A stretch of DNA of 64,000 nt from Blasia pusilla (Eukaryota). The position numbers were made by a program, and so were the translations under genes. A model generated the notes under the pieces. The model worked only from the letters and a program-made list of their open reading frames with translations, had not been told where the DNA came from and did not search any database. This document shows positions 18 to 64,000 of the stretch, one piece after another. The DNA is taken from positions 6,324,001 through 6,388,000 of the forward strand of contig CM114271.1 in the NCBI GenBank assembly GCA_050084515.1, written 5' to 3'. Every line of letters begins with the position of its first letter. Position 1 is the first letter of the stretch.

Positions 18-757
18 TATCACATCTTTGAGCATGGATCGACATGTATCCATAAAGCACCTTCGAGGAGATCGAAAGATAGCCTCACGAGGTCCAAGAT
101 AATCTGCTTAAGCCTCAATTACCTTGAGAGAGCGAGTTTCCCCTTCATTTTGGCTCATTTGGAGCTATATTGAGGAACTTTCTATTTCACATAAGTTCCT
201 ATAATGATCATATTTGACTTTTCTTTGATCCCCTGTAGTAGGTCAAAAGCCAAGAAGAGAGGGAAGGAGATATACCCAAAGAGGGGATCGGAGCTTGAAA
301 GCTCATTCTCTCTTCTTTGAACCTTTTGGCATGAGGCGGCGGAGCTATGATCCTCCTTCGTCGCAAACAAAAAAGTCTATAGTGCCCACGCTAGCAAGGA
401 CCTAGGAAGCGAGTCATGATCATGAGTCCAAGAAGGGAAGATCGAGAGTTGCAAAAGCCGCAAGAAACCGCCACCAAGCCATTTTGATGGATAGTTAATC
501 AAACACCAGTATGTGGGTCAGACACTACATTTGGGTTCAAGGCCAAAATCAAGATGTGGCTCGATTCCAAAAAATTATTTGCATTGTGAACCGTTTTGAC
601 TTCGATTTTACATGAGAAAGATGGGTGTATGGTCTTGGTGTACATGTGTGAGTGCATTTGTGTGTGCATTTGTATGTGTGCGTGTGGATGTACCCATGTG
701 TGTTGTGTAGATGTGAGCAGAAATATGGATTGTATAACAATGTGTATGCACGCAACA
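18..757 (+). repeat. Degenerate LTR of the local gypsy family (probably solo)
   Basis: Starts TATCACATCTT (cf. TGTCAC LTR starts at 7531 and 14467) and ends GTGTATGCACGCAACA (cf. GTGTGCGCACGACA at 7528). Positions 140-350 align by eye with the LTR segments at 7620-7837 and the reverse complement of 7960-8230. No clear TSD. Confidence 0.5.
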
Positions 758-768
758 TCATACAAAGA

Positions 769-1143
769 TGTCGTGCGCATACACATCGTTGTCATCAAAC
801 ACATACACAAACACGCACGATCCCATGTTTACTCATGGCATCCAAACAACGACACAAGAAGTACCAAAATATCTCTAATAAAATAAGATCCAATCTCTCT
901 CACAACACCATAATTCTCATATGTGTGCACTCTCACATGTCTCTCTCAATGTCAAACCAAACCCACTCTCCTAATGAGAGGTTTGGGTTACACACACAAG
1001 GCAAGCAAGACCATAGCTCCGCCGGCTCATGCCAAGAGGTTCAACAAAGAGAGAATGAGCCCTCAAGCTCTCTCTCCTTGAGGTATATCCCTCCCCTCTC
1101 CCAAACTCTCTCCATGGTAACCTATGCTCCCAAGTCACCTCCC
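769..1143 (-). repeat. Partial LTR in inverted orientation relative to the coding region
   Basis: Begins TGTCGTGCGC (reverse complement of the LTR 3' end). 879-1143 is a direct repeat of 7837-8100, and 769-880 is the reverse complement of 7401-7528. Confidence 0.88.
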
Positions 1144-2480
1144 AAGTGTGACTATTGTCATAGGTATGGTCATACATGCGCCACGTATTTCATTTTATAT
1201 CCTGAGTTAACGTCCGCACCGAGGGCCAAAGAGGGCACCAGAGCGAGTAGCCGGTCCAGGTGGTCCCGTTGGGGGACGAGGAGCTCGAGTTACTTGATAG
1301 GGTAGTGGAGCTGCCCGTGGAGGAGGTAGAGTCCCACCATCTAGACACGTTGAGGGAGATGTCAGACGTGAGGCTAGGATGGTTGCTCACATACAAGAGC
1401 TACAGGAGCAGATTGCCGTTGTGGCATTGAGGTTACCCAATGCTGGATCTGTGGCATCGACATCATATGGAGCAACCTGAGATACGGAGGATCGTGGTTG
1501 GATGTGCAAGGTTGCCCAGATGAAGGCATCCGCAGTTGTGATGCGTGGAGCAACCGTAGAGTTGGATCCAAAGCAAGGAGAAGCCATGAAACAGACCAGG
1601 CTTCCTCAGTCTTTCACGTTGTCCGAGGCGATGAGGACCCCATTGATGGGTCTTGATCAGAGTTCTTGGAGAGTTGGTGATGTTGTTGGTGTGTGGGCAC
1701 GGATCGCAATGGGAGAAGCGAGTGCAAAGACTCCTATTCCTCATGCTCATTAGGAGCATGTGCTGAGCACGTTGTTCGGGGCGGCCACCGTTGTGTACAG
1801 CGCTCCTTTACTTTCAGCTTTCGATGTTATGACGTAAGGAGATACATCCGCCGAGGTTTTTTGGCTGGCCGCTATGCTATGTGATCGTGGAGTTGGAGTT
1901 CCTGCATCACGTTCAGAGGTGATTGCAGAGGAGGTGATGGAGATGCCCTCGGAGGTGATGCTCGGGCCATCCACGTCAGATTCATGGCAGGCTGCGGCTG
2001 CTAGGATGGTGGAGATACCCGCTAGATCCGCGATACAGCGTGCCATGGCTTCTCCTCATGTTGTGTTGGTGGATAACAGGGGAGAGATCTTCCAGTTGGT
2101 GAGTCTTGGAGGTAGAGCTTTTAGTCCGCAACGCGTCTTGTTGGATTGAGGAGCGCAACCCCTGATGTTCGGGAAAGCGTCATTAAGAGGATTGGGCTTA
2201 ACGAGAGCCGATGTGGAGCGTTGTCCATTCCGGATATATACATCCTTGGATGGAATGAGTATCACACAATATATCATCCGTCAGGAGCTCGCAGTGAGCA
2301 TTCGCCCCGGACATCCTACAAATGAGTCCATAATGCGAGCCTAGGCGATAGTGATTGAAGTAGAGTCCTACGACGTCTTGGTTGGTGGAGCAATGTTATA
2401 TTTGATGGGTTTTTCCCTGGATTACTGGGAGGAGTCAACGTCCTACAGACACCAGGATGGCAGTCAGGTGATGGGTGCCT
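1144..2480 (+). pseudogene. gag C-terminal region and aspartic protease of the gypsy element
   Basis: CCHC-like knuckle CDYCHRYGHT at ~1147, and RVLLD*GAQPLMFGK at ~2131-2175 (intact LDSGAQP in the sister copy at ~11240-11285). Confidence 0.8.
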
Positions 2481-2859
2481 TAACTCATTACCCGTTCGAT
2501 TCACAAATGCACCGATCGAGCGACGGCCAGGAGAGATGGTGACCTTAGCAGCATTTAGCAGTGCCATCACTTGGCCTAGTGATTTGATTGAAGGACATGT
2601 CCATGCAGAGGATACTTCCATTCTTGACATTTCTATGGATATGAGTGTCATGGTAGCGGCATCAGTCTGTGGAAGAGAGGTGCCGCTTTGGGGCTCGACT
2701 GAGGAGAATTGACGCTTAGCCACTCAGCATGTGCTAACCGCGTGGAGCGAGACGTTTGCACCAGAGTATGACGGGTCAGAGGACCCCAAGTAGGCAGGAG
2801 TGTTGCTATGACCCCTTTGGACATCACCCCGATTGTGTGGTGCATCCTAGAGAATTTCA

Positions 2860-3860
2860 GCTGACACTTGGTTCTCCAGCATACATTTTGGAGAATGTGC
2901 CAATTTTGGGCGATTTGAGATCTCGTGTGGTGATGAGTTTACATCAGGTGCGCACATGGATTGGTTTGGCAGTGTTGTTAGATGCAACAAGTGTGGGTTC
3001 ACGAGCACATTGACCGCGTCTTTGGTGGACCAACTTGGTACCACACGAGGTGTTACGGAGGGCATATGCGAGAGTGAAGCGCCCCTCCGATTTTTTGGGG
3101 GATTCTATATTGGATCCGGATGGTCGATCATAGGCATTGAGGCCAGATGATCGACCGCCGTTGATTGTGGTCAATAGGATCAGTGCCTCATTCAGTTTTC
3201 ACAGTAATTGTTGTTGGGATTGGAAGAAGAGAGAAAGCAAGGAGTCTGTGAAGCCTGTAGACTGGCGTACAGGTTTGATAGCTGGGTTCTAAAGCCTTGG
3301 GTCTTGAGTTTTGATGATCAGAATGAGTGGTCTTCTTGTTAAGGAGAACTGAGCCCTGAATTTTGTATCTCAGAGTTCAGATTTATAATTGAAAGTGATT
3401 TGAGTGGTGAGTGGCGCGTGGAAAAGTGCTTTATTGCCAAAAGTTTCAATTTTGTCAATAGTGGTCACCTGATTTTGGCGTTTATTCTCACTCCACTTAT
3501 TTGTGATCCTCGGCTTTTTGAGCTTTGTGTGCTTATGTCATTGGGGATTGGTGATCATCGAATTTGTGGACGGTCGTGGCGACCTCCGCGTGGGACAAGG
3601 AATCGACCACGTGCAGCTTTTTCCACATTGGTAAGTTTTCTCGCTTCCTATGCATTCAAGGAGGCCAGACCTAGCTTGGTTTGGGATGACCAAGTACAGA
3701 GGTTGGTAGAGCCCAACACCAATGAGCGAGAACGAGTGATGGGATTCCTCACAAGAGTGACGGCAGTACCGTCATTATCAAAGGCATCACGACGTCATGT
3801 ATTGGGTCAGGAGATGGACCTCAACTGCTTGACATGGACTTTTAGCTTAGGAGTAGATTA
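2860..3860 (+). pseudogene. DNMT3/DRM-like cytosine-5 DNA methyltransferase domain (C-terminal part) inside the gypsy pol
   Basis: Motif VI YILENVP (2882-2902), motif VIII LDATSVGSRAH*PRLWWTNL (~2978-3037), and motifs IX-X EPNTNERERVMGF...SLSKASRRHVLGQEMD (~3709-3820). Motifs I and IV are not seen. About 0.4 kb of unrelated sequence interrupts the domain at ~3180-3600. Confidence 0.82.
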
Positions 3861-4329
3861 GCAGCGTTGTTTGAAGATGCAACAGATCACAATTGTTGCG
3901 TTGGTGAGTCCCATGCCTACCAAGACGGTTGAGGCAGCGGTTGGGGGCGAGACCCAAAGAGATCGAAACACCAGGGGTGATTGGGAGAGACACCCTTGGA
4001 CTTCTTGGGATGTTTTGCAAGTACGCCAAGAGATGATAGCCACAGCATCGAGTGTGGTTTCAAGTACTACACGTGGAGATGAGAGTTCTATTGTCCGAGA
4101 CGGGGTTGCACCATAGCAACCACCGACACCCGCGTCATAGAGTCCTACCGTAGTCACGATGGAGACTTGGGAGCCATATATAGACTCTAAGTTAACAAGA
4201 GGAGAGCGGCGCCGGATACACCAGTTCCTTAGGAGTTATAGGAGTTGTTTTGCATTTAGTTTGCATGATTTGGGTACGCTAAAGGGTCCACGCATCCGCA
4301 TTGAGTTGTTGAGTGACACGCGGATCTTT

Positions 4330-5600
4330 TGACGACCCTACAAGTACATTGACATGGAGAGGGCTCTGATTCAGAGTAGGAGCCAAGACTTGGTTGGAGC
4401 AGGACTAGTGGAGATGTCGCATGGAGAGTATGGATCTGTCACTGTCATGCCCACCAAGAAGGATGTGCATGGTAACTGGACAGATAGGCGGATGTGTGGA
4501 GATTATCGACCTATCAATCGGCAAACGAAGTCTGATAGATATGCCATGTGCACTCCTGAGGAGATCTTTGATGCGATTGGGCATGCAAAGGTCTTCAGTT
4601 CATTGAATTTGCAAGCCAAATACCATCAGCTGCCTATCAAATTCAAAGACATGTAGAAGACAGCATTTTGGGGCATTGATCATCACGGAAAGGATTGTTT
4701 GTACCAATGGCAGTTCTTACCATTCGGGCTAAATAATGCCCAGCCTGAGTTTCAGAGGGTCATGGATAGGATCTTGGAAGGTATGGATTTTTCAAGGTGT
4801 TATATTGATGACATCGTAGTCTTTAGCGCCACGATTGAGGAGCATGAGCGACATCTAGAGGAGGTATTTTGACGATTGCAGTTCCATGGGCTGAAGCTAC
4901 ATCCAAGCAAGTGCAAATTCTTCTATGGCCAGATTTTGTACTTGGATCATACGATATACCCAAGGGGCCTTCGTATGCAACAGACGAAGGTAGAGGCTAT
5001 TTCACGCATTCCACGCCCTACAGATGTGAGTCGAGTTCGTGCATTCATGGCATTGGCGAACTTCTATCGACAATACGTCAAGGGTTTCAGTTCGATTGCG
5101 AAGCCGCTAACCTTGATGACCAAGGTGAATCAGAAGTGGCATTGGAGGGATGAGCAAGAGAGAGCATTTCAAATGCTCAAGGACATATTGACGTCCGCGC
5201 CCATATTTAGGAGATCGATTAGGGGGCGTCCTTTCCAGTTGCATGCCGATTGGAGCATGTTGGGGCTTGGACCCGTGCTCACCTAGCATGACGATGATGA
5301 TAGAGAGTTCCTGGTGGATTACGCCAGTCGCTCGAACAACGATATAGAGGCGAAGTATAGCTCGTATGAGGGTGAGTGCTTGGCTGCAGTGTGGGTTGTC
5401 GCACATTTTAGATGTTATCTATTTGGCAATCCTTTTACCATCATTATTGATCATCAGCCACTTAAGTGGTTGATGGAGTCCGACAAGCTTATAGGGAAGC
5501 TTGCGAGGTGGGCTCTTTTGTTGCAGGAGTATGACTTCCAAGTAGTGCATAGACCTAGGACGCTCAACCAAGATGCAGATGGTTTGAGACATAACCCATG
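4330..5600 (+). pseudogene. Reverse transcriptase and RNase H of the gypsy element
   Basis: RMCGDYRPIN, LPFGL, YIDD (4801-4812), KLHPSKCKF, FQLHADWS, YASRS...YSSYEGECLA, DHQPLKWL, NQDADGL. Interrupted by stops. Confidence 0.93.
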
Positions 5601-5979
5601 CCCGAGTCAACGTGATACGACTAGAGCTCATTCGCATGGTCAGAGTGATGAGGAGTTGGTGTCAAGATGGCATGCGTCAGCCTATTTGGGCTTGTTGGCT
5701 ATGGAGAGCCAAATTGTTGAGACTTCGATGGCGAGGTCTGATGGAGAGTCCTTAGATCCAGAGGCCGTTGAGGAGACATCAGGTGGCCGAGATATTCACG
5801 ACGATGGAGTGGTCTTGGAGTACCTGCGTATTGGCAGCGTCGCAAGTACAGTGGGTGTTAGAGAGCGGGATCGGATCCTACAGCGAGCCAGACGGTTCCT
5901 GTGGGAGGGCACACATGTGTTGCAAGTGCGGAAGGATGGTAGAATGTGTGTAGTGCCTCATCCTTCACAGACAGTATGT

Positions 5980-7220
5980 TTGGTGCGTCATGCCCATGAG
6001 GAGTAGGGTCATTTTGGAGTGAAGCGGACGTACAACTTGCTCTAGATTCAGTATTGGTGGCGAGGCATGCAGACTGACGTTCAGCAGTTTGTTGCCAAAT
6101 GCATGGTGTTTGATCAAGTCCGAGCATCGTTCAATGCTCCGACTCCACACCTGCATCCATTTTCGATCATGGATGAAGGTTATAGATGGAGTTTGGATTT
6201 TGCAGGACGTTTGCCTTTGACGGAGCGCCATTGTTGTTATATGTTGGTGATGGTCGAGCACTTCTCAGAGTGGATAGAGTTCATTGCATTTCCTAACAAA
6301 GCGAGTGAGGGAGTAGCGTATGCCTTCCTAGATTGAGTGTTGAGTCATTATGGCGCACCAGCAAAGGTGTTGACAGACCAGGGTACAGAGTTTCGCGGGG
6401 AGTTTCAGGCCTTGTGTGATCAGGCATTGATCGACCACCGCACAACTTCGCGAGATCATCCTGAGGTGGATGGACTAGCGGAGCGGCTTGTGCGGACGGT
6501 GAAGAGAGGACTACGTAAGTATGGCTTTTAGAGAGGTCACCTAGGAGATTGGGACCTTCAATTGCCGTGGTTGGCGATGGGATACAGATTCAGCAAGCAT
6601 GCATCCTTAGCGTCTTTCTCACCGTACTTGTTGCTTTATGTTGCTTTGCGGCCATTCGTCGAGATGTTGGTGAGGTGTTGAACCTTGAGGACCCTAATGT
6701 ATGGATGCAAGCATGTTCTCAGAGAGCTGAGTTATTTCGGAGAGTGATGCCCATGGTGTTTGAGAACTTGGCGATTGCGCAACATCGGGATACGTTGAGG
6801 TATACGACTATTCGGGGAGGTGGTTATCGACCTACTATTTGGAGGTTTCATCAAGAATACTATGTCTACTTGCAGCAAACGGCATCCACGACCTTGGATG
6901 TGACTGCATAGCGCACCATCTTGAAAGTGCATGAGGTTTTGCCATCCGGTGTTCCCTTATTGGAGGGACGCGATGGTATGGTTTGGAAGGACCATATGCA
7001 TAATTGTGCACCATGTCATCTTTCGAACATTGACGGTACAGTTGATCCGAGCTTAGCAATAGTTCCTGCAGGCTTGTGGTGTATGTTGTGTGCTTCCGCT
7101 CGTGGTGCAGCCACTATGCTAGTCTGTGATGGGTGTTTGAGAGGATGGCATATAGCATGTTTGACGCCACCTCTCACTAGGGTTCCTCAAGGACGATGGA
7201 TGTGTCCCAGATGTACATAG
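5980..7220 (+). pseudogene. Integrase with C-terminal PHD finger
   Basis: HHCC-like HAHEE*GHFG, catalytic core WSLDF / LTDQG / GLAER, and terminal C4HC3 CMLC...VCDGCLRGWHIACLTPPLTRVPQGRWMCPRC (7080-7217) followed by TAG. Confidence 0.9.
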
Positions 7221-7400
7221 AGTAGGTAGTTCTACATTCTGACTTGTGTCTGTGACATGAATGACAAGAAGGCAACTAACAATTGGGCCACATGAGCACC
7301 CAACATTCTTTCTCTAAGCATCCGAGATATGTATGTCATGGTAGGTAGGGATAGATGGCTATCTAGAGTTAGAGGGACCTAATCACCAATTGTGGGGGCG

Positions 7401-7837
7401 ATTGGAGATATTTTGGTACTTCTTGTCTCGTTTTTTGAATGCCATGAGTTAGCATGGGATCGTGCGTGTTTGTATGTCTGTTCAATCATATTGATGCATG
7501 TTGTGTAGTGATGTGTGTGCGCACGACAACTGTCACTTCTTTTAAGATAGATCGGTGAGATCTAGTAGAGCATCTTTGTAAGTAGTAGAGGACAGGGTTA
7601 GTAGGTTGAAGATGACTTTTCGGCTCATTTGGAGCCATATTGAAGAACTTACTATTTTATGTAAGTATTTTGAGTATATGATTGACTTTCTATTTTTGGT
7701 AAATGACCCTTGACTTCCTACATCAGGTCAAGAGCCAAGGAGGTGACTTGGGAGCATAGGTTATCATGGAGAGAGCTTGGGAGAGAGGAGGGGTATACCT
7801 CAAGGAGAGAGAGCTTGAGAGTTTATTCTCTCTTTGT
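7401..7837 (+). repeat. LTR 3' end (7401-7528) joined through AC to an LTR 5' part (7531-7837)
   Basis: Junction reads ...GCGCACGACA-AC-TGTCACTTC. It follows the PPT-like TGTGGGGGCG at 7391-7400. 7531-7837 is the reverse complement of ~8000-8354. Confidence 0.8.
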
Positions 7838-8354
7838 AAAATAAGATCCAATCTCTCTCACAACACCATAGTTCTCACATGTGTTCATTCTCACATGTCT
7901 CTCTGAATGTCAAACTAAACCCACTCTCCTAATGAGAGGCTTGGATTACACAAACAAGGCAAGCAAGACTATAGCTCTGCCGCCTCATGCCAAGAGGTTC
8001 AACAAAGAGAGAATGAGCTCTCAAACTCTCTCTCCTTGAAGTATTCCCCTCCCCTCTCCCAAGCTCTCTCTATGGTAACCTATGCTCCCAAGTCACCTCC
8101 TTGGCTCTTGACTTGATGTAGGAGGTCAAGGGCCACTTACCAAAAATATAAAGTCGATCATATACTCAAAATGGTACTTACCTAAAATAGTAAGTTTCTA
8201 AATATGACTCCAAATAAACCGAAACGAAGGGAAAACCTACTCTCTCAGGTTTCTCGGGGCCTCAATAGGTCATCCTTGACCAACTGAGCATGTCCTATAC
8301 TACTCACGAAGACGTTCTACTAGATTGCACCGATCTGTCCTAAAAGACGTGACA
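7837..8354 (-). repeat. LTR (5' and middle part), inverted
   Basis: Ends GTGACA at 8354 (TGTCAC on the minus strand). Direct repeat of 879-1143 and inverted repeat of 7531-7837. Confidence 0.85.
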
Positions 8355-11039: not shown

Positions 11040-14000
11040 AGAAGCTAAGATCCACGTATAAGTGAACAAGAAATTTCACCTCGGCACAAGATCACTAGCG
11101 CTCACTAGTTATCATCATTTTTGTTTACCACCAACTCCTGTCGAGTCATGTACTGCGTGGATGATACCCAATAGAGGTCTGTATCTGAAAGGGACAACGC
11201 TCGATGTTGCCTTTTCGTGACCCCAATGCCAAACATGTCGTCTTCCCTAACATCAAGGGTTGCGCTCCTGAATCAAGTAGGACGCGTTACGGTTGGTACA
11301 CCGTACCTATGGGACTAACCAAGCAATGAACTCTTGTTCGGTAATCCAACAACACCACACGTGGTGTGATCATGGCTCGCTCTATCGTTGGCCTAGCTGG
11401 CATATCTACCAACTTCGCCACCGCAGCATGCCATGACTCCGTGGGAGACGTCCTAGCACTTTCTTTGAGGTCAAGTCCACCACCTCCTCAACTACCTCTA
11501 AACGAGAGGCATTCACCTCTCCACGCTCACACAACGTGGCGGCCAGTCGAAACACCTCCGCTGGTCCAACTCCCAATGTCGCCAACTCCATGGCGGAAAA
11601 CCAAAAAGCATGGCTGCATCGACATTGGCTCCTCCCGAGCAAGCATAGGAGTCTTCTCCCCAACTCCTCATGACGTTAATGCACTTGCCTCATCCGTTGG
11701 TGTCACCGGTCGTCGAGGCACCATCGACAGTGTATGAAGTACCTCTGACAATGTGAACGACTCGGGATCCCTAACCTGACCCCCATCGGTCCCCTCCTGT
11801 GGGTCAATCTCAACCCCACCTCTCGATGGCTCGGTTACTCTCCCAGCATCCCGAGTCACCACCGCAATAGCCTCAATCTCAGCTGCACTACACATAAATC
11901 CCATCCCGAAAAAATCCTCACAAGCATCGTGGTAAGATATGGAGGTTGGCGACACACTAGCTACTCTAAGCTCCGAGCTTGCCTATAGTTGCATCATCAT
12001 CATGGCAGCAATCCTCTACTCCAATTGATGATGCGCAAAAGGAGCGTTGCATCGGATGCACGTCCTCCATCTCTTTTGACTGGTGATGGCACTCTACCAC
12101 CACGATCATCCACCACTCGATCTCCACCAACTCTCTCGCCCCCAAGTCCTTTGCCTACCTCTGGACGTATCTCTTGGCAAAGATCATAACACCTATCCCT
12201 AGTGTGACCATATCGGTGACAATGATCATACTGCAATTATGGTAGGGCCATCCTCTATGGCTCTTGAGCAATCGAAGGCGCCCGTGGCCCTCTTCCATGT
12301 TGTGGGCAGTCCCTCTGCCTATGTGACCCACCACACGTTCAACAAGCCAATCCTAGTCCCTACCGGAAAACATATGTTGGTACAGACCATTGCCTCATCT
12401 GCTCACAATACCCACCCTCCTCTCTGGGCCCATCGGCCCATTCCTGTGGTACTGGTGCATGTTGGGGCACCTATGGGTCTACTCCTACTCGTCAACGCAT
12501 CGAATCTTGCAAAAATCCCACTAACGTTGTCACCACCTGCTCCTTACTTATGTTGAGCTCTACCAGCTCAGATACTCCACCTTCAATGTGGGCTTCGTCG
12601 TGTGAAGCAACATCGCAACCCGAACTCTCCTCTGTAGCTCCTCAGTCATCCCATATACTGTATAGACTGCGCCTCAGTCATCCCATATGTGGCAACAATC
12701 AAACGTCGCATGTGCGTGAATGCCTCTCTCAGACTCTCACCCGATCTCCGCTGAAAATCTTGTAGACTCTTCAGCTTGTCGGTCCGGACGCCCTGGTAGC
12801 TCCTCCCCAACTATCGGAAGAACTCCACTGTAGGACTGAAACTCTGTGATCCTCTACCACACTTCCTCCATTCTTGTGGGCACACTGCCCTATGTACTGG
12901 CTTTCCCGATCATCCCTCACTAGCCAACCTTTGTTGTCGCGCGGTCTGACGCCCCCTTCTCTTACCTTCATTAAGGACGCAGATTGACACGCGTCCCTAT
13001 GGAGGGACTCTCCTAACTTGGAGCCATAATGGCTCCTCCTTCCATCCCGGAGCGCCCATACTTGCCCTTGTCTCCCCACACTTGGTCCGAGGTCACCACG
13101 TACACGGCTTCCTAAGGAGACCGTTTTTCTCTCCCATCTTCGTCTCTTCAACCCCTATGACCTAACTCCGTTACCTTGCGACCGAGCCATCTTTACTTGA
13201 GAGCCCCCCGGTAGCTGCAAGCCCTAAAGGTGCTCTTCTCCTATCTCTTTCTCGACACTTGCCACTACATCGATGCTACTCTCTACGCGCTACACTCTAC
13301 TACTTTCCTTCATCATCTTGTACCAACAATATCTAAGAAAAACGGACAACGCTCCCGCGCACAACCTTCTAAACAGAAAACAACACACAAAATGCCACAC
13401 ACGCGTCTCCAAGGGCTTTCCTCCGAGGCAAATCGCTTGCCTACCTGCAACCAAAAAATTCCCTACCCACTCACATCTTTCTCATGTAAAATCAAGAGTA
13501 GTAAAAATGGCTCATCAGGTCTAAAACTCCACTCATGAATCTACATCGGCATATCGAACCACATCCACCCTCTACTATGAGGGAATTCGGACGCTAGCAC
13601 CCTAACTCCTACACACCCACATACGTCTATGCAAGAGAGGCGCTCCTAAGGCTCAACATGAAAAAGATGGCTTGGGAAAGTCATCTTCCTCACTCTTATA
13701 CCCTTGAGAAGATGTCGTGCAATCCACATCGTCATACAACATACATCGCTGACATACCATACGCACATACATACATAACATAGACGAGAGTATCCACAAA
13801 CGCAAGTGTACCACAACTTAAGTGTACCACAAGTGAAATCCGTGAAAGACCTACTGTCATAAAACACGTTTACAATCACATACAATCGAGCCAAACCCAC
13901 TCCACGATGGGAGAATCCAGGTCGAAGCTTGCGGGAAACACCATAGCCAAGAGCTCTACTCACTACCAAGGGTAACTCCCAACGCAACAGGCTCAACTCA

Positions 14001-18512: not shown

Positions 18513-18848
18513 TCACTTTTTCAGACTGCCCCTCACGCCCGGTTTAGGTTTCGATGATTCCGCAGTGACAGCAGCGGAAACAGATGGAGTAGACGCGTGC
18601 AGGTTGATCAGCTTGTCCTCCTCGTAAGGCAACTTCGGATGGCGAGCCTCGTGGTGAATCAACATGCTCTTGGAGTCCGGAGCTGTCGCTCTACAGACGG
18701 GGCACGCCAGCTTCGCGTGACCGCCTTTGTCCAGCGCCTTCCGGTCCTCCACTCCGGCCTTGCCTCCACCTCTGTTGGTCGTCGCCGCATCGATCTTGGC
18801 CGCAATTTCCTTCGCCGTGTGCTTCTTTGGCTTTGCCTTGCCCGTCAT
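18513..18848 (-). CDS. MBS1: METHYLENE BLUE SENSITIVITY (MBS1/MBS2)-type small C2H2 zinc-finger protein, 111 aa, single coding exon
   Basis: MTGKAKPKKHTAKEIAAKIDAATTNRGGGKAG...GGHAKLACPVC...HHEARHP...KPKPGVRGSLKK matches the MBS family pattern. The GA-rich upstream extension is interpreted as 5' UTR. Confidence 0.92.
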   Translation of the reverse strand: MTGKAKPKKHTAKEIAAKIDAATTNRGGGKAGVEDRKALDKGGHAKLACPVCRATAPDSKSMLIHHEARHPKLPYEEDKLINLHASTPSVSAAVTAESSKPKPGVRGSLKK

Positions 18849-53527: not shown

Positions 53528-53587
53528 AGTAGGTTTTCCAGTATTTTGTATCTGGCGATCTAGTGTGTTTGCACAAAATCTTGAGAG

Positions 53588-56500
53588 ATGGCTACTTCTT
53601 TGTCAGTTCGTGCTCGCCCTCCTCCATTGGGTGAAGGCAAGTTAGATGGGTCTAACTATATATTTTGGAAGTTCAAAATGAGAACTGTCCTCGAATCATT
53701 TGAGATCTGGGAGACGGCCACAGGGGTTGATTCGAATCCACAAGCTACTTTGAGTTCTGCATGTTCATCTTCATCTAAAGATATCGATTCTGTTGTATTG
53801 ATGGCATGGAAACGCAGAAACGATGATGCTCTATATACGATTGTCACGAATATAACTGATTATGTCATGACTCTCATTCAACATATAACCATTGTCGTTG
53901 AAGCGTGGAACATTATGAATAATCACTATGAAACGAGGAACGAGACTCAGATTTAAAATCTGAAGAATCAGCTTACATCCGAAAAAATTTCAGAAGGAGA
54001 AAGCACGGAGCAATTTTTGACAAGGATCAAGAATCTTCAAGACCAGATGGCGTATGTAGAAATTTCAAAGTCTAGAGAAGATTTGGCACGTCCGTGCATA
54101 AGGATTTTGCCTCCAAGTTATGACAGTTTGGTCATTGCATTGAATACTCAAGTAAGACCCACGCCGCTTACTTTTGAACGATTTAGTGCAATGTTGGTAG
54201 AAGAGGAAATGTGCTTCAAAGCAAGAGAGGGAAGTGATGCATCATTTACTACCAACGTACAAAGAGGTATAAATCAGGATTACATTTCAAATGTCAAGAA
54301 GAAATTTCCAAGGAAAGCCTTCAAATGCTTTTATTGTGGTAAGGTAGGTCATCTTATCAAAGATTGTAGAAAGATGAGTGAGGATGAGAAGAACGGTTGT
54401 TTAAGACCTAAGAAGGAGTCTGGAAATTTTGTAGGACTAGAAGAACATGAAGTAGATGCTTGAATAGCAATCAAAGATTTTTGCACGCAGGAAAAACATT
54501 CCACTAAGTTAAAGAGTAAAGATGCATGGGTGCTCGATAGTGGAGCATCTAGGCATATGACCAATCATAAGGATTGGTATAGCTCCTTACAGCCTCTACA
54601 AGAGCCCATCGTTGTTATTGTTGGAAATAATGCAAAGTGCCTTGTAGAAGGGAAAGGCAAAATTTCTTTAGTCTCACAAAAAGGAGATGAAAAGAAGTTA
54701 ACTGATATATTGTACATACCAAAGTTGAAGCAAAATTTGATTTCAGCTGTAGTATTATGTGATCGTGACCTAGAAGTTTGTTTCAAGAAAACTGGAGTAG
54801 TCATTGAGGATGCCAATATGGTGGGTGAAGGTATACGACGTGGAAATATCTATGAGTTGTATGGTTTCACGACAAGTGTAGGTACAGATCGTAGTAGCAG
54901 TAAGTTATGGCATGAAAGATTTGGTCACCTAAGCTTTCCCTTACTAAGTCAGATGCAAAAATTTGGCATGGTTGTTGATTTACCAACAATTTATGGAATG
55001 TCGGATATATGTGAAGCTTGTATGATGGGCAAGCAACACCGACAACCATTTCCACAAGAGTCAAGCAATAGAGCAAAGGCTCCTCTAGAGTTGATTCATG
55101 CTGACCTCTGAGGTAAAATAAGAATAGTGGCATTAGGTGGTTCTTCCTACTTCTTTTTAGTTATCGACGATTATAGTAGGAAGATGTGTATTTCCTTCGT
55201 GATAAGGCAAGTGCTTTTGGAAAATTTAAAGTATGGCACAAGCTGGTTGAGAATGAGACAGGAAAGAAGGTACATAAGCTTCACACCGATCGAGGAGGAG
55301 AATTCTTATCAACATAATTTAACAAATATTTGGGGGAGCATGGAATCAAGCGATAGTTAACCACGGCACATACACCACAACAAAATGGAGTTGTTGAGCG
55401 TCAAAACCATATAGTGGTGGAGATGGCAAGATGTATGATGAAAGCAAAAGATTTGACAGAAGGATTTTGGGCTGAAGCTGTTAATACTGCCGTTTACATC
55501 CTAAATAGAAGTGCTACCAAGTCAGTACATGCATGACTCCTCATCAATTATACTCAGGTAAGGTACCATCAGTCCAACATTTCAGGAATTTTGGTAGTGA
55601 GTGCTTTGTACATATTCTTGAAGCATCCAGAACCAAGCTGGAGTCCAAGAGCATCAAGTGCATCTTTATGGGATACAGTGTTGAGTCTAAAGCTTATCGC
55701 CTATGGTGTCTCAAGGCAAAAAGATGCTTATGAGTCGTGATGTGGTGTTCCAAGAACAACCTTGTCAAGTGGCAGATATCAGTGGTCCGTCCACACTATC
55801 GTCAAATAAAGAGATAACCCACTAGAGCACACCACCAATGCTTACACCAGATCATCAAAAAGAAGAATTTGGTGATGATTACAAAGAGCAGCCTGCTCTT
55901 CCACTACAGTCGTCATACCCTAACGGGATAAAGCAACTCTTGGATGGTAAGGATCCACCAGCAAGTGATGAAGTTGTTACACATCGAAGGAGATCCAAGA
56001 GACTAGAGGGGCATAATAGAGCTTCCGCACATCTCGTCAACATGGCCTTGATGATAGAGGTCTTGAAGGTGGAAGAGCCATCATGCTTGGATAAGGCCCT
56101 TGCTCATCCTCAATGGAGAGAGGCCATGCAGATGGAGATGGACGCTATTCAAAGAAATGAAACTTGGACTTTGGTTGAGAAGCCAAAGGACAGGAAGATA
56201 ATACGCACCAAGTGGGTATGCAAGACCAAGTACAAGTCGGACGGTACATTGGATAAATTCAAAGAGAGGTTTGTTGCACAAGGATGCTCACAAATTGAAG
56301 ATTTTGACTACTATGAGGCTTTTGCTCCTACTGCAAGGATGAAAACCATTCGAATTGTTCTAGCGGTCGTAGGAATAAGACATTGGCATGTATACCAATA
56401 TGATGTGAAGTTTGCCTTCCTGAACGGGAGTCTCAAGGAGGAGGTGTATGTATCTCAACCACCAGGTTTTGAGACATCCGGATCAGAAGAGAAAGTGTGT

Positions 56501-58667
56501 TTACTTCATCGAGCATTGTATGGGTTGAGGCAAGCCCAAAGGGTATGGTATCAACGAATAGATACATTCTTCTGAGAAAAGGGTCTCATCAAGAGTCTGT
56601 CCGAAGCAAATTTGTATGTGTTTTGTGAAGATGGGATGTATATCTTGATAGTCTTGTATGTGGATGATCTTATCATCACAGGAGACCATAGTAAAAAAAT
56701 AGAGGAAATGAAGGAAGTGTTGAAATCTGAGTTTGAAATGACAGGTTTAGGTCTTTTGCACTACTTTATAGGGCTGGAGATTTGGCAACAGTCAGATTCT
56801 ATTTTTCTCTCAACAAAAGTATGCTAGAGAAATCTTGAAGGCATTCGGGAGGACCGAGTGTAAGGTAGTGGTCTCGCCAATGGAGGTAGAGTTGATACTC
56901 TCGATGGAGGATGTTTCACTATTGGTAGATGAAAAGTTGTATAGATAGCTTGTAGGCAGTTTGATATTTTTTTGTAACACTAGACCGGATATTAGCTTCA
57001 CTATGGGAGTGTTCAGTAGGTTCTCAACTAAGCCTCGTGAGAACCATTCGAAGGAAGGGATGCGTGTGTGGAAGAACATCAAAGGCACTATTGAGTACGG
57101 CATCACTTATGGAGCGAGGACGGAAATGACAGGTTTTTGTGACTCGGATTAGGCAAGAGATTCAGATTCTCGAAGATCAGTTTCGGGTTATTGCTTCTTG
57201 GTAGGATCAAATATGGTGTCATGGGTGAGCAAGAAGCAACCTCCAGTAGCTCTTTCTTCTACCGAGGCATAGTACAAGGCGGCTTGTTATGCTTGTTGTG
57301 AAGCAGTATGGTTGAGATGGATATTGGAGGACATAGGAGAAGCACCAAAAAGTGCTACTATAATGAGGTGTGACAATCAGAGTTGCATTGCCATAGCATA
57401 TAATCCAGAGTTTCATGCTTGTACAAAGCACATAGAGATCCAGTATCATTTTGTTCATGAATTGATCGAGAGAGAGGTTTTGAAGTTAGTCTGGGTGTAT
57501 TACAGGTGGGTAGTGACCTGCTAGGAGGGAGGTGACCTGTGTGTACATGTCACCCATGGAGGTGCCCAAGGGGGTATACCTCGGATGAGGCTCATTTGGA
57601 GCTCATCTCCTTAGGATTGCGGACCCTTGTTGGGATCCGGGATACAACGCAACTTGCATGTATTGAGCTTGGATTCTCTATTGAACAGTGGGCTAGGAGT
57701 GATGAATAAAGAGATCACATATTTTGGGAATCCTTGTGTATACTTTCTCTTGCTGTTACACCAGTGTGTATCAAAATCATGAGAATGGCTGTTTGGATGA
57801 AGCACAGTTGATTGTAGATTTCATCAGAGCTTACAGTGCGGATTCAACTTTATATTGCGGTGGTCCAGTCGTTCATGTGTAGAGTATGTTGGCAGCGATG
57901 TGTATTCGCATGACACTATAATATTAAGCAAAAGAAAAATACTCAATAAAGAAAAAAATGACTAAGGTCCATTTAGGGTCCAAATTGGTTTGAGTGACAT
58001 ACACACATGAGAGGGAGTGGCATCTTAAACTCATAAATCCCAAATTGGCAAAATGGAGCCTCAACATGTGTGTATGTTGAGGCTGCATTTTGCCAATTTT
58101 GGGATTTATGAGTTTAAGATGCCACTCCCTCTCAGATCTATGAATCCCTCTATTTAAGAGTCCGCTCCACCCCACTTTTTTATGGTGAGGGGAAAGACAT
58201 CCATTAAGTTCTGAGGCCGCTTACTTAACTATTCTCTTAAATATTCCACGTGTCAACACCCGAAAAGAATTGAAAGGAAAATTATCATTTGAGAATATTT
58301 CTAACACCATCCTCTTTGAATTATGTACACTGGTTAGGACCCGTGAGGGAACAGTATAATGCACGGTCTACTCCACTCCACGATCTCGAAAGCCTAAACG
58401 GCCCGTTACGCTGCACGAATGCCCATGTCATACGTCATACATACTGGGTTCAAAGGACACGTAGTGATCTCTCCGGTGTCACCATGAAAATCAATCCTAT
58501 GGTAACTAATCTATATTATTATAGGAGAGTGGATTATTGATTTGCAAACTCCTCTTCGTTTCACACGTCCCCTAGACGATAACCGTGCAGACATCTTCAC
58601 GAAAGCTTTGAACGGAGATCAGCTTCACCGATATCTGAAGGATCTTGGCATAAGTCCAAGACAGTAA
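53588..58667 (+). pseudogene. copia gag-pol polyprotein, disrupted
   Basis: KLDGSNYIFWK, CFYCGKVGHLIKDC, LDSGASRHMT, LWHERFGH..CEAC, IDDYSR, KERFVAQG, YVDDL, FCDSD, KHIEIQYHF, ADIFTKAL (after a ~1.07-kb insertion). Confidence 0.93.
57492..58558. mobile_element. Unclassified insertion splitting copia RNase H
   Basis: RNase H stops after EVLKLV (~57491) and resumes at PLDDNRADIFTKAL (~58568). Contains a long palindrome and, at 58510-58555, the Helitron-family 5' motif. Confidence 0.7.
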
Positions 58668-61319: not shown

Positions 61320-63903
61320 AAGTCCACGTTAGGAAATCGGAGTAGACTTAGAGCATGGAGGCTACGCCCAACATTGAGATTAAGGCTTAGCGATAACATA
61401 AGAACCAATTAGTAGAATGTGACTTGATATTCACGCTGCACTACAGAGTTGGCACTAGCAATGCTCCAACTTTATAGGGAGTTGTGGTTATTGTGGGACA
61501 ATTTGCTATGGGAACACACATAATAAGATGGTCGTCGTAGAAAGTGAGACATATTCGCCTTATGCGTTGTGCAATGGTTACATGACTAAGCACATAATAC
61601 CTTCTCCTCACAAATTCTATGCATGTTCACAATGCAACAATGGTATACCCCAGACACAATATAATGTTTATATGACTCCTTCCTACACACGCGACGTGCT
61701 TAAGGTGAAGTCGTTGTATCTGCAGCTACTATCGCTCGTTGATTCTCACCTAGGGATTGAAACAAAGTTCAATGGATTTCATACAAAGGTTTTTCAAGTT
61801 GACTCCCTTCTTGATTGTCCACTTGTTGCATGGAATGTTGAGCACCCACTGTTATCTGATCCAGATTTCCTCTACCGCTAGGTAAGAAACGTTATATTGG
61901 TAAACCTGAGGCTGAACCAGTTATTCACTATGTATATATCCCTGGTTGAGTTACCCAGTCCTACACTTGGACTTGTGATTCTCCCATCGACTAGTGTAGA
62001 TGTAAATTTGAAATTATCGCAAAAGAAGGGTCAGCTTATCCATACTATGTCTGTATTGTACAAAAATTAATGTGCTATAGGGTTTTCATTACTCCTTTCC
62101 TATGAAACGTCGTAAATCTTATGATCTTTTTTGCAATGGCAGCATTTTTTTTCGGGAGCATACATAACTTAGGGAGCTATTTGTTAATGAGAGATATGGA
62201 ATTTCAACATATGCAAAACTCACAATTGAGACAATAAGTTTTCCTTTATTGTTTCCCTATTTGAGAGGGTTTTTTACTGGTCAATGTTCATTCAATGAGT
62301 ATTTGAGTAGCCGTACAAAGCAGTTGTTTAGTGTGTTTACACTATACCAGCCATATATGCTTATAATGGACTATCTTCGACAATATTTTGCCTTAACTTC
62401 TTCTAGTCATTATTTTCTTCTGAACAGAGAAATTGACCAGCTGAAAAAGAGATTTCCCCACCTTCATGACGAGGACCTTTATACACACCTATCTAGGTAT
62501 GTTGTTATTGTGCACATCCTTGGTAGTCCATCGTGGCACAGACGATATTTAAAGGATCTTAAGGAAATGGTGAAAAAGTAGGGTATGCCCGACGTGTTTC
62601 TCACCCTCACTTTTGATGAAGTATCAGATTCCAGATGGCATGAAATTGACGACATGGAAGTCATTCTCCGTAGGCTTAACCCATCTTTCACATGGAGAAA
62701 GATGGGTTATTGAGTAATAGAATATATTGACTCTAGTCCTCCACATAGAAGAACCATCATGTATAAAAATGCCAGTACGCTTTGCAAACATCCAACAATC
62801 TTATATTGCCATCAACCTGAATGCCTGTCAATTTGACGTTCTTTAAGTTATGGAGTTCTTATGAAATCCTTGCAATAGGTACAAGAAGCTAAAAGAAATT
62901 TGTGGCACATGACTCCATTGGAAACTATGTATATAAAATGGACAGACTTGTCTGATTCACTAAATATCACCCATTGCATTAGTTGAACGAATTCTTCTAC
63001 AACATACTCCTCATCCACATTACATTGAGGTTGAAAGGTGAGATTCTCTCCATAGAATCTCCTAATTGGACATATTTACATGAGTGCATTTGTCGAGATA
63101 TTTTTTCGTGATCCTTCATCCATAGTTGAGGAAATTAAAAAACATGATGTATCTAATCTATGGAGTGAAGTTCATGCGAGTGAAATTGTAACAAAAGTAA
63201 TTGACTTTATTGAACCATAGTTACTGTTTGATGTAGACCCCAATACATTTTGTATCAGCGAACCACATAGCAATGACACTACTAATATACCCCAACCACA
63301 TGGTAGCACGGCCTTACCCTTCAATATGTCGAACTCTGAACAACTATAACTTTATGAGACTATCAGTAGACTCTCAGCTGGTTTGGTAATGATAACTGGT
63401 CCACCAGGATCTGGCAAGACATTCTTTATCTATTTCATTCAAAAAAATTGGCTTGCTAATTCTGTGCCAACCATGTTGACTACAACGACAGGTATTGATG
63501 TTATAAGGCTTCATGAACAAGCTACAACAGTGCATTCTGCCTTTGCCATCCCTGTGAAAGGAGATCTACCTACAATGCACACTGCAAGTGATCACTACAT
63601 TTGCCTTTGGGATACTAAAGTAATAGTCATAGATGAATGCTCACCCCCGATTATTGCAGATAATTGCTATGAGATTACAGGAGGTTTGCCCATCCTCCAA
63701 TCTTAGTACCTTTTCAACAAAACTTGTTATACTTTTAGGTGACCTTTTTCAACTACCTCCAATTTGTTGGCATAACCTTGTTCCAATGTGCCTAGTGTGC
63801 CACATATCTTCATCCCCACTTTTCAGCTCACTGCACAAATATGAACTTTCTGCTATTATGAGACATGGTAGTGATACTCAACTACTCACATTCTTGTCGC
63901 AAA
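61320..63903 (+). pseudogene. Helitron Rep/PIF1-helicase remnants
   Basis: LFPYL..F, GSPSWHRRYLKDLKEMVKKYGMPDVFLTLT (Rep), and ITGPPGSGKT, TTTTG, TTVHSAFAIP, VIVIDECS, LLGDLFQLPP (PIF1 motifs I-III). Confidence 0.85.
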
Positions 63904-64000
63904 TGTCGTGCGCATACACATCGTTGTCACCGAACACACACACAAACACGCATGATCACATGCTAACTCATGGCATCCAAACACAGAGGCGAGAAGTACC
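63904..64000 (-). repeat. LTR 3' end of the gypsy-MTase family inserted in the Helitron helicase (runs off window)
   Basis: TGTCGTGCGCATACACATCGTTGTCA..., nearly identical to 769-865. Confidence 0.9.

Follow-up and report, generated by a model that had tools for sequence, protein, structure and literature searches.

Can a retrotransposon of a land plant encode its own enzyme for cytosine methylation? The question is raised by a Ty3/Gypsy element of the liverwort Blasia pusilla, which lies in a stretch of 64,000 nucleotides (nt) of contig CM114271.1 (assembly GCA_050084515.1, positions 6,324,001 to 6,388,000 of the forward strand). This whole stretch is called the window below, and positions are counted from its first nucleotide. 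An initial annotation, made from the letters alone, had noticed peptide strings like the motifs of C5 cytosine methyltransferases between the protease (PR) and reverse transcriptase (RT) of the element. A transposon with its own de novo methyltransferase is a paradox, because hosts hold transposons in check mainly by cytosine methylation. Our analysis indicates that positions 148-8224 (+ strand) are very probably a dead, rearranged copy of a liverwort Ty3/Gypsy family whose gag-pol encodes a DNMT3-like C5 methyltransferase. With the same high confidence, which applies to the reading as a whole, the gag-pol of the family would run in the order gag (CCHC), protease, DNMT3-like C5 methyltransferase, RT, RNase H, integrase, and PHD finger.

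Remnant of a methyltransferase in the window copy

The window was mapped by tblastn with the related proteins P0007, P0014, and P0022, and domain pieces were located by a Pfam scan. Together the two methods gave the PR-RT-RNase H-integrase order of a Ty3/Gypsy pol (Pfam pieces PF17917, PF17919, PF17921, and PF00665), with RT and RNase H spanning 4153-5925 in the tblastn mapping. All four peptide strings named in the initial annotation were recovered on the + strand in the order it had given. The segment that holds them lies where it had been placed, with the protease remnant upstream and the YIDDIVVF string of the RT downstream (Table 1). The strings correspond to what we take to be motifs VI, VIII, IX, and X of C5 enzymes; the names I, IV, VI, VIII, IX, and X are used in this sense throughout. 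Judged by sequence, the two pieces of the remnant represent a C5 cytosine methyltransferase domain that lies between PR and RT and has kept its C-terminal two thirds. Motifs VI, VIII (with a stop inside it), IX, and X are kept, and motifs I-V are absent.

The loss of motifs I and IV, suspected from the outset, was borne out: about 376-400 bp with motifs I-V are deleted, and residues 847-1010 of P0014 are unmatched. The insertion of ~0.4 kb was also found as described, with residue 1114 of P0014 matching on either side of 3185-3600. The stops reported in the remnant lie in frame at 3011 (inside motif VIII), 3131 (in the target-recognition region), and 3859, and are three of the 20 in-frame stops across the element alignments. 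The YILENVP and LDATSVGSRAH strings are in a different reading frame from the ERERVMGF and SRRHVLGQEMD strings. The window copy is dead and without function. The enzyme cannot be made from it because motifs I-V, with the cofactor-binding loop and the catalytic Cys, are deleted, ~0.42 kb is inserted, the frame is shifted, and stops are present. About 333 gag residues are gone as well, and the repeat at 879-1142 abuts residue 334 of P0014 at 1147 in the tblastn mapping. A known transposon was considered for the 416-bp insert, which gave no Pfam match and has no second copy within the window.

Table 1. Features of the Gypsy copy and of its surroundings in the window (asterisks in peptides are stops)
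Feature	Position	Strand	Details
5' terminal-repeat region	148..1142	+	879-1142 repeats 7837-8100; 148-358 resembles left arm of 3' repeat; 359-878 extra sequence; abuts gag mid-protein
gag remnant	1147..2130	+	from ~residue 334 of P0014; CCHC-like knuckle; several stops
Aspartic protease remnant	2135..2449	+	stop within active-site triplet region; VLLD*GAQPLM at 2135-2167
Linker, protease to methyltransferase	2452..2840 (tblastn match 2452-2763)	+	ends PLDITPIVW, found ahead of motif I in relatives; contains two small frame-shifting insertions or deletions
Deletion scar, motifs I-V removed	2841..2874	+	34 nt vs 410 nt in relative L004
Methyltransferase remnant, first piece	2875..3184 (tblastn 2873-3184)	+	motif VI (ENV), YILENVP 2882-2902; motif VIII, LDATSVGSRAH*PRLWWTNL 2978-3037; start of short target-recognition region
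Insertion, ~0.42 kb (416 bp)	3185..3600	+	private to this and a few copies
Methyltransferase remnant, second piece	3601..3858 (tblastn match 3601-4014)	+	motif IX, ERERVMGF 3724-3747; motif X, SRRHVLGQEMD 3787-3819; stop at 3859
Reverse transcriptase	4153..5283	+	YIDDIVVF at 4801-4824; P0007 residues 691-1190 at 58% identity
RNase H	5287..5600	+	PF17917, 4.5e-24
Integrase, zinc-binding and core pieces	6046..6528	+	PF17921 and PF00665 pieces; P0022 residues 1097-1237; tblastn span 6106-6528
PHD finger, C-terminal end of pol	7080..7214	+	PF00628, 3.1e-11 (Pfam scan of 6912-7217)
3' terminal repeat	7618..8224	+	inverted arms 7618-7837 and 8002-8224 (89-92%) round 164-nt centre
Related element fragment, gag and protease only	11167-12843	-	P0014 residues 134-673; cut before methyltransferase
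Host gene, single exon, small C2H2 zinc-finger protein, METHYLENE BLUE SENSITIVITY 1 type	18516-18848	-	homology search; no Pfam match
Ty1/Copia element	53585-56575	+	Pol_BBD, gag_pre-integrs, RVT_2
PIF1-like helicase typical of Helitrons	63350-63706	+	

The domain in relatives and its likeness to DNMT3

The read-through translation of 2738-3292, with X at stops, was searched against a collection of 5.8 billion proteins. It matched 22 proteins (E 2.9e-34 to 3e-7), among them 13 from Marchantia polymorpha, two from Calypogeia fissa, and one from Sphagnum fallax; the best match covered 74% of the query. A precomputed PF00145 assignment is present on 18 of the 22. The PF00145 test proposed in the initial annotation thus had a divided outcome. 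For the window pieces alone it failed: none of five matched PF00145 at E <= 10, and neither of two pieces matched a PDB sequence (phmmer, E <= 10). For relatives it succeeded, with five of eight scanned proteins scoring 34.9-42.7 bits against a cut-off of 22. The failure of the bare window pieces in Pfam and PDB is due to the pieces being too short and too broken. Taken by itself, that failure would suit a chance likeness of a few short motifs in a decayed PR-RT spacer. Such an accident is next to negligible as an explanation given the match at E = 2.9e-34 to PF00145-bearing proteins over 74% of the query and the 53-60% identity of the window pieces to the relative P0001, over an alignment that extends from motif VI to motif X.

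In relatives the domain is encoded within the gag-pol frame, and its position between PR and RT is kept in many independent copies and species. P0007 has PF00145 at residues 460-529, followed by RVT_1 at 833-919. In P0037, a single open reading frame (ORF) of 2188 amino acids (aa), zf-CCHC is followed in turn by protease (below cut-off), PF00145, RVT_1, RNase H, and integrase. In a metagenomic relative (L006), gag-PR-methyltransferase and RT match in a single frame. Long open gene models of the family are present in M. polymorpha. Motifs I and IV, missing from the window copy, are thus found in relatives, in frame with gag-PR and RT. Across the 22 relatives, motif positions follow the unpermuted order I-IV-VI-VIII-IX-X, with a cofactor loop (LDLFGGISTG), a catalytic PCQ, ENV, an Arg-rich motif VIII, and motifs IX and X.

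Conservation was measured by column counts in an alignment of 204 domains. The catalytic Cys is present in 201/201, the Glu of motif VI in 204/204, the two Arg of motif VIII in 201/204 (first) and 202/203 (second), and the Glu of motif IX in 198/203. Near-invariance of catalytic residues among clusters below 50% identity therefore argues, as far as sequence can, for selection on catalysis.

The resemblance to DNMT3 proposed from the peptide strings was upheld in relatives: among solved C5 enzymes, the domain is closest to DNMT3A/B/C by sequence and by predicted fold. P0001 (368 aa, essentially the domain alone) matched DNMT3A best in the PDB (6e-12), followed by DNMT3B (1.4e-9), DNMT3C, plant DRM (DRM2, 1.6e-4), and bacterial enzymes (M.HaeIII, 3.5e-4). 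A profile of 32 diverged domains gave DNMT3A at 3.3e-25, DNMT3C at 4.9e-23, and DNMT3B at 3.6e-22; behind these came a plant chain named 'DNA methyltransferase' (4onj, 1.6e-16), DRM2 (2.6e-13), M.HhaI (2.7e-9), and DNMT2 (3e-5). No DNMT1 chain was matched by this profile in the PDB at E <= 1. An AlphaFold2 model of P0001, built on the 32-domain alignment, had a predicted local distance difference test score of 90.2 and a predicted template modelling score of 0.89. Foldseek found 224 PDB matches to it at E <= 0.001, and the best 50 were all DNMT3A/B/C chains. Catalytic-domain chains among the matches listed had TMt of 0.78-0.85 at ~20-23% identity. A methyltransferase fold with a DNA-binding lobe is thus predicted in the model of the relative P0001, not in the window copy.

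Homology places the domain among the Gypsy polyproteins of a large family from the green lineage, in which two architectures occur. A phmmer search with P0001 against 1.84 billion representatives gave 4,268 matches at E <= 0.001 (965 at <= 1e-10 and 269 at <= 1e-30), many of them proteins of 1,000-3,400 aa. Named members come from Scenedesmus, Haematococcus, Chromochloris, Cymbomonas, Closterium, Marchantia, and Sphagnum; no Klebsormidium (K. nitens) protein was among the named matches of the homology searches. The clusters found with P0001 in the Protein Atlas are PF00145-type. The first is commonest in Streptophyta, and the next two are mostly viral and were treated as no evidence. Domain probes on 245 proteins defined the two classes. 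Class A has the order PR-methyltransferase-RT-RNase H-integrase and includes all bryophyte members here. Class B has the order RT-RNase H-methyltransferase-integrase-PHD, in full in 65 proteins and in part in more. The domain is therefore found at two sites in pol, between PR and RT (class A) and between RNase H and integrase (class B).

A FastTree tree was built from the 204 domains and the two window pieces. A single change is enough to separate its 34 class-A rows from its 120 class-B rows, with local support of 99 for the split, and the window pieces fall in a 15-row clade of bryophyte-type sequences (support, 96). FastTree readily joins long branches and the tree has no outgroup, so one relocation and two captures are indistinguishable in it.

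Copies and transcripts in sequencing reads

Approximately 1% of genomic run X11, which carries the same species label, was compared with the element at a likeness of at least 85%. On 1143-7300 fell 84,676 of 12,434,590 DNA reads (0.68%), and only 84 reads were at least 99% alike, equal to ~2-fold depth. Summed DNA depth was ~1,300-2,600 over most of the element and ~550-690 over 2791-3202. Because the summed depth is far above the ~2-fold single-copy depth, the family has, as a rough estimate, hundreds to about a thousand copies. An index search for sequencing runs with the sequence found five, with shares of 0.16-0.19, and no RNA run was listed.

Reads of other copies bypass the damage in the window copy. 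Depth in the insertion at 3185-3600 was 21-29, against 1300+ beside it, and in the joint rows listed at least 162 reads jump from 3174/3180 to 3607/3613, skipping it. Since 21-29 compares with ~2 for a single copy, the insert appears to be a low-copy repeat. Before 2871, 571 reads have loose ends, and the consensus of these ends, read in frame, gives the residues found ahead of motif VI in relatives. Other copies in this genome therefore continue through the deletion. A further 836 reads of other copies extend before 1145, where the gag of the window copy is cut.

These data bear on whether the segment is a one-off, in which a single copy captured a host DNMT3 fragment, or the element inserted in a host DNMT pseudogene, and the family lacks the enzyme. 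The window itself holds just one copy with the segment (no second copy of the methyltransferase segment was found within it), and a deletion scar and an insertion flank that segment. Other copies do carry it, as would be expected of a family trait: it has the same PR-RT position in 16 bryophyte protein models (the 13 Marchantia, two Calypogeia, and one Sphagnum), and 160 metagenome stretches encode relatives. Depth over 2791-3202 is likewise hundreds-fold where ~2 would mark a single copy, and the domain tree divides by pol position with a single change. A one-off capture is accordingly very improbable, and a family-wide domain remains the preferred reading.

The family is abundant and transcribed in runs of the same species label. 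Three RNA runs held 4,023, 4,077, and 4,045 family reads. The first mate was mostly of the - strand, which would make these sense transcripts of the family, provided that the libraries follow the common stranded design. The reads come from other copies, because most are less than 90% alike to the window copy. RNA depth over the methyltransferase pieces was ~7-19, below the adjoining parts.

Two joints were biased toward RNA. A joint from 4280 to 5352 was seen in 36 reads of the three RNA runs and in 0 DNA reads, and one from 5370 to 5526, with GT..AG ends, was seen in 27 RNA reads and 1 DNA read. They may mean that transcripts of the family are spliced, or that variants with deletions are expressed. 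Genomic reads differ from the window copy mainly by transitions (C>T at 308 places, G>A at 310, A>G at 230, and T>C at 192). This excess, together with stops in most metagenome copies, would fit decay of methylated repeats.

Points against, precedents, and possible function

Several observations weigh against an element family with a DNMT3-like enzyme, in addition to the database failure of the bare window pieces. Pfam found no family in P0009 and P0013 and only the integrase core in P0022. PWWP and/or ADD reader domains are typical of the N terminus of animal DNMT3, and no such Pfam family was found in the 13 polyproteins scanned. The DNMT3 assignment is a ranking by similarity of sequence and model, not a placement in a tree. 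The methyltransferase pieces have about half the DNA depth of the flanking parts, and some copies may therefore lack the segment or be diverged in it. Intact copies were rare in the metagenome set, in which 160 stretches of Joint Genome Institute contigs encode P0001 relatives and 80 were kept (L001-L080). A stop-free match over residues 50-355 was present in 2/80 loci. In the remaining 78, the match contains stops, is split, or is partial; where a full-length single match has stops, their number is 1-17. Among the 40 loci longer than 7 kb, no + strand ORF of at least 400 aa was found except one of 449 aa.

The terminal repeats of the window copy are a further difficulty, being other than plain long terminal repeats (LTRs). 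The LTR that the initial annotation had placed at 769-1143 holds only for 879-1142, a direct repeat of 7837-8100 (264 nt, 93% identity); the remaining part does not. Outside these 264 nt, the rest forms inverted arms. The sequence at 784-879 is found as its reverse complement at 7401-7496 and appears once more at 63903-64000. A DIRS-like reading of these repeats was considered and is disfavoured. A rearranged copy is more likely, because plain direct LTRs of 307-344 nt, ~8.7 kb apart, are present in the relatives L006 and L073.

The last points concern catalysis, which for family members is predicted from sequence and fold. The residue before the catalytic Cys in motif IV is Pro in 96/202 domains and Glu in 95/202, with Glu in both architecture classes. 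Glu in place of Pro is unusual in active C5 enzymes. In addition, one Symbiodinium methyltransferase borne by a long interspersed element failed to methylate DNA in yeast, and RNA was raised as a possible substrate, in the available text of PMC5890265. These points would fit a domain that, in intact members, does not in practice methylate cytosines in DNA, acting instead on RNA (as DNMT2) or serving a non-catalytic or regulatory role (as DNMT3L) by recruiting or blocking host machinery. We consider this improbable. The near-invariant Cys, Glu, and Arg residues counted above argue for retained catalysis, DNMT2 is far weaker by profile than DNMT3A (3e-5 vs 3e-25), and all Foldseek matches listed are DNMT3A, 3B, or 3C chains, several of them from DNA complexes. 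For a DIRS-borne Dnmt3, CG methylation has been reported (PMC5890265, as far as available). A DNA-methylating enzyme of the DNMT3 type therefore remains the preferred candidate.

The catalytic domains of animal DNMT3A/3B/3C (PDB 2qrv, 6f57, 6u8p, 8tci, and others) are the best sequence and fold matches and share with the family the motif order I-IV-VI-VIII-IX-X and the short region between motifs VIII and IX. The family differs in its identity of only ~20-23%, in having neither PWWP nor ADD, and in being embedded in a retroelement polyprotein. Motif IV is PCN in DNMT3, whereas it is PCQ (or ECQ) in the family. Plant DRM1/2, the plant de novo methyltransferase lineage related to DNMT3, form the second-best group by profile score (1.6e-16 and 2.6e-13). 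In DRM, motifs VI-X are placed before I-V. DRM is likewise described as rearranged in the accessible part of PMC5890265, whereas the order in the family is not.

As the initial annotation had stated, methyltransferase retrotransposons are known from dinoflagellates and charophyte algae and are not standard in land-plant Gypsy elements, which fits what could be consulted of PMC5890265 and PMC6338049. Gypsy-Dnmt3 was reported for Klebsormidium nitens only (de Mendoza et al. 2018, PMC5890265), and neither Marchantia nor liverwort occurs in the available text of that paper. In the portion available of a 2019 opinion paper (PMC6338049), transposon methylases are said to be absent from land plants such as tracheophytes. 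A 2026 preprint (10.64898/2026.05.21.726589), as far as accessible, has 'streptophytes (Gypsy-DNMT3)' cited from PMC5890265 and mentions liverworts only for N4-methylcytosine. No retrotransposon with a DNMT was found described in the literature for any land plant, liverworts and mosses included, subscription journals and supplements being outside the search. What is new is the bryophyte, and so land-plant, extension of the known Klebsormidium-type Gypsy-Dnmt3, abundant and transcribed.

KnitGypsy-Dnmt3 resembles the present family in its unpermuted DNMT3-like domain in the pol of a streptophyte Gypsy element, with key catalytic residues conserved, and its copies are themselves silencing targets (PMC5890265, available text). 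Its figure legend gives an unusual DIRS-like repeat arrangement, and the window copy has partly inverted terminal repeats. The present family differs in its host, a liverwort with relatives in Marchantia, Calypogeia, and Sphagnum, and in the plain direct LTRs of L006 and L073. SymbioDIRS-Dnmt3 of dinoflagellates also has a DNMT3-like domain in a retrotransposon pol; de novo CG methylation was reported for it and cDNA (complementary DNA) methylation proposed (PMC5890265, available text). That element is of the DIRS type and has a tyrosine recombinase, in contrast with the Gypsy element with a DDE integrase here. Our searches gave one Symbiodinium-labelled match, which was weak (P0245, E 1.6e-8). 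Chromoviruses, too, have a chromatin-reader module fused to the C terminus of the integrase, a chromodomain there and a PHD finger here. A PHD finger also terminates the class-B polyproteins of green algae, again as a chromatin reader fused to integrase instead of a chromodomain.

In intact members, the methyltransferase would be translated within the polyprotein and packaged or released with RT and integrase. It would then be near both enzymes during cDNA synthesis and integration. By analogy with the proposal for the DIRS-borne enzyme (PMC5890265, in part), the putative enzyme may methylate cytosines de novo on new cDNA or at or around the integration site. The PHD finger might tether the integration complex to a particular state of the histone H3 tail, as chromoviral chromodomains suggest. 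Any benefit could go to the element, by mimicking host DNA or choosing quiet chromatin, or to the host, by self-limitation. A wider view is conceivable, and we hold it as doubtful: Gypsy elements with a DNMT3-like methyltransferase and PHD might be an ancient green-lineage group (chlorophytes, charophytes, and bryophytes) that persisted through the colonization of land and, with about a thousand copies in liverworts, is transcribed to this day and possibly mobile. Their enzyme might methylate the cDNA or landing site of the element itself, contribute to or subvert host de novo methylation, and even be linked to the plant DNMT3 lineage.

Marchantia polymorpha is a model plant with mutants of host methyltransferases. 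The role of a transposon-borne DNMT becomes testable in a tractable land plant, because the family is abundant (~0.7% of reads), transcribed, and represented by long open gene models in M. polymorpha. For the evolution of epigenetic modules in retroelements, the family adds two pol positions, a PHD finger, and the 269 representatives at E <= 1e-30.

The surroundings of the element are rich in transposons (Table 1). The protein of the host gene among them, by which the window is placed in a liverwort, is 91% identical to that of Marchantia paleacea, 86% to Riccia sorocarpa, and 84% to Calypogeia fissa, and 67-79% identical to the named vascular-plant proteins listed.

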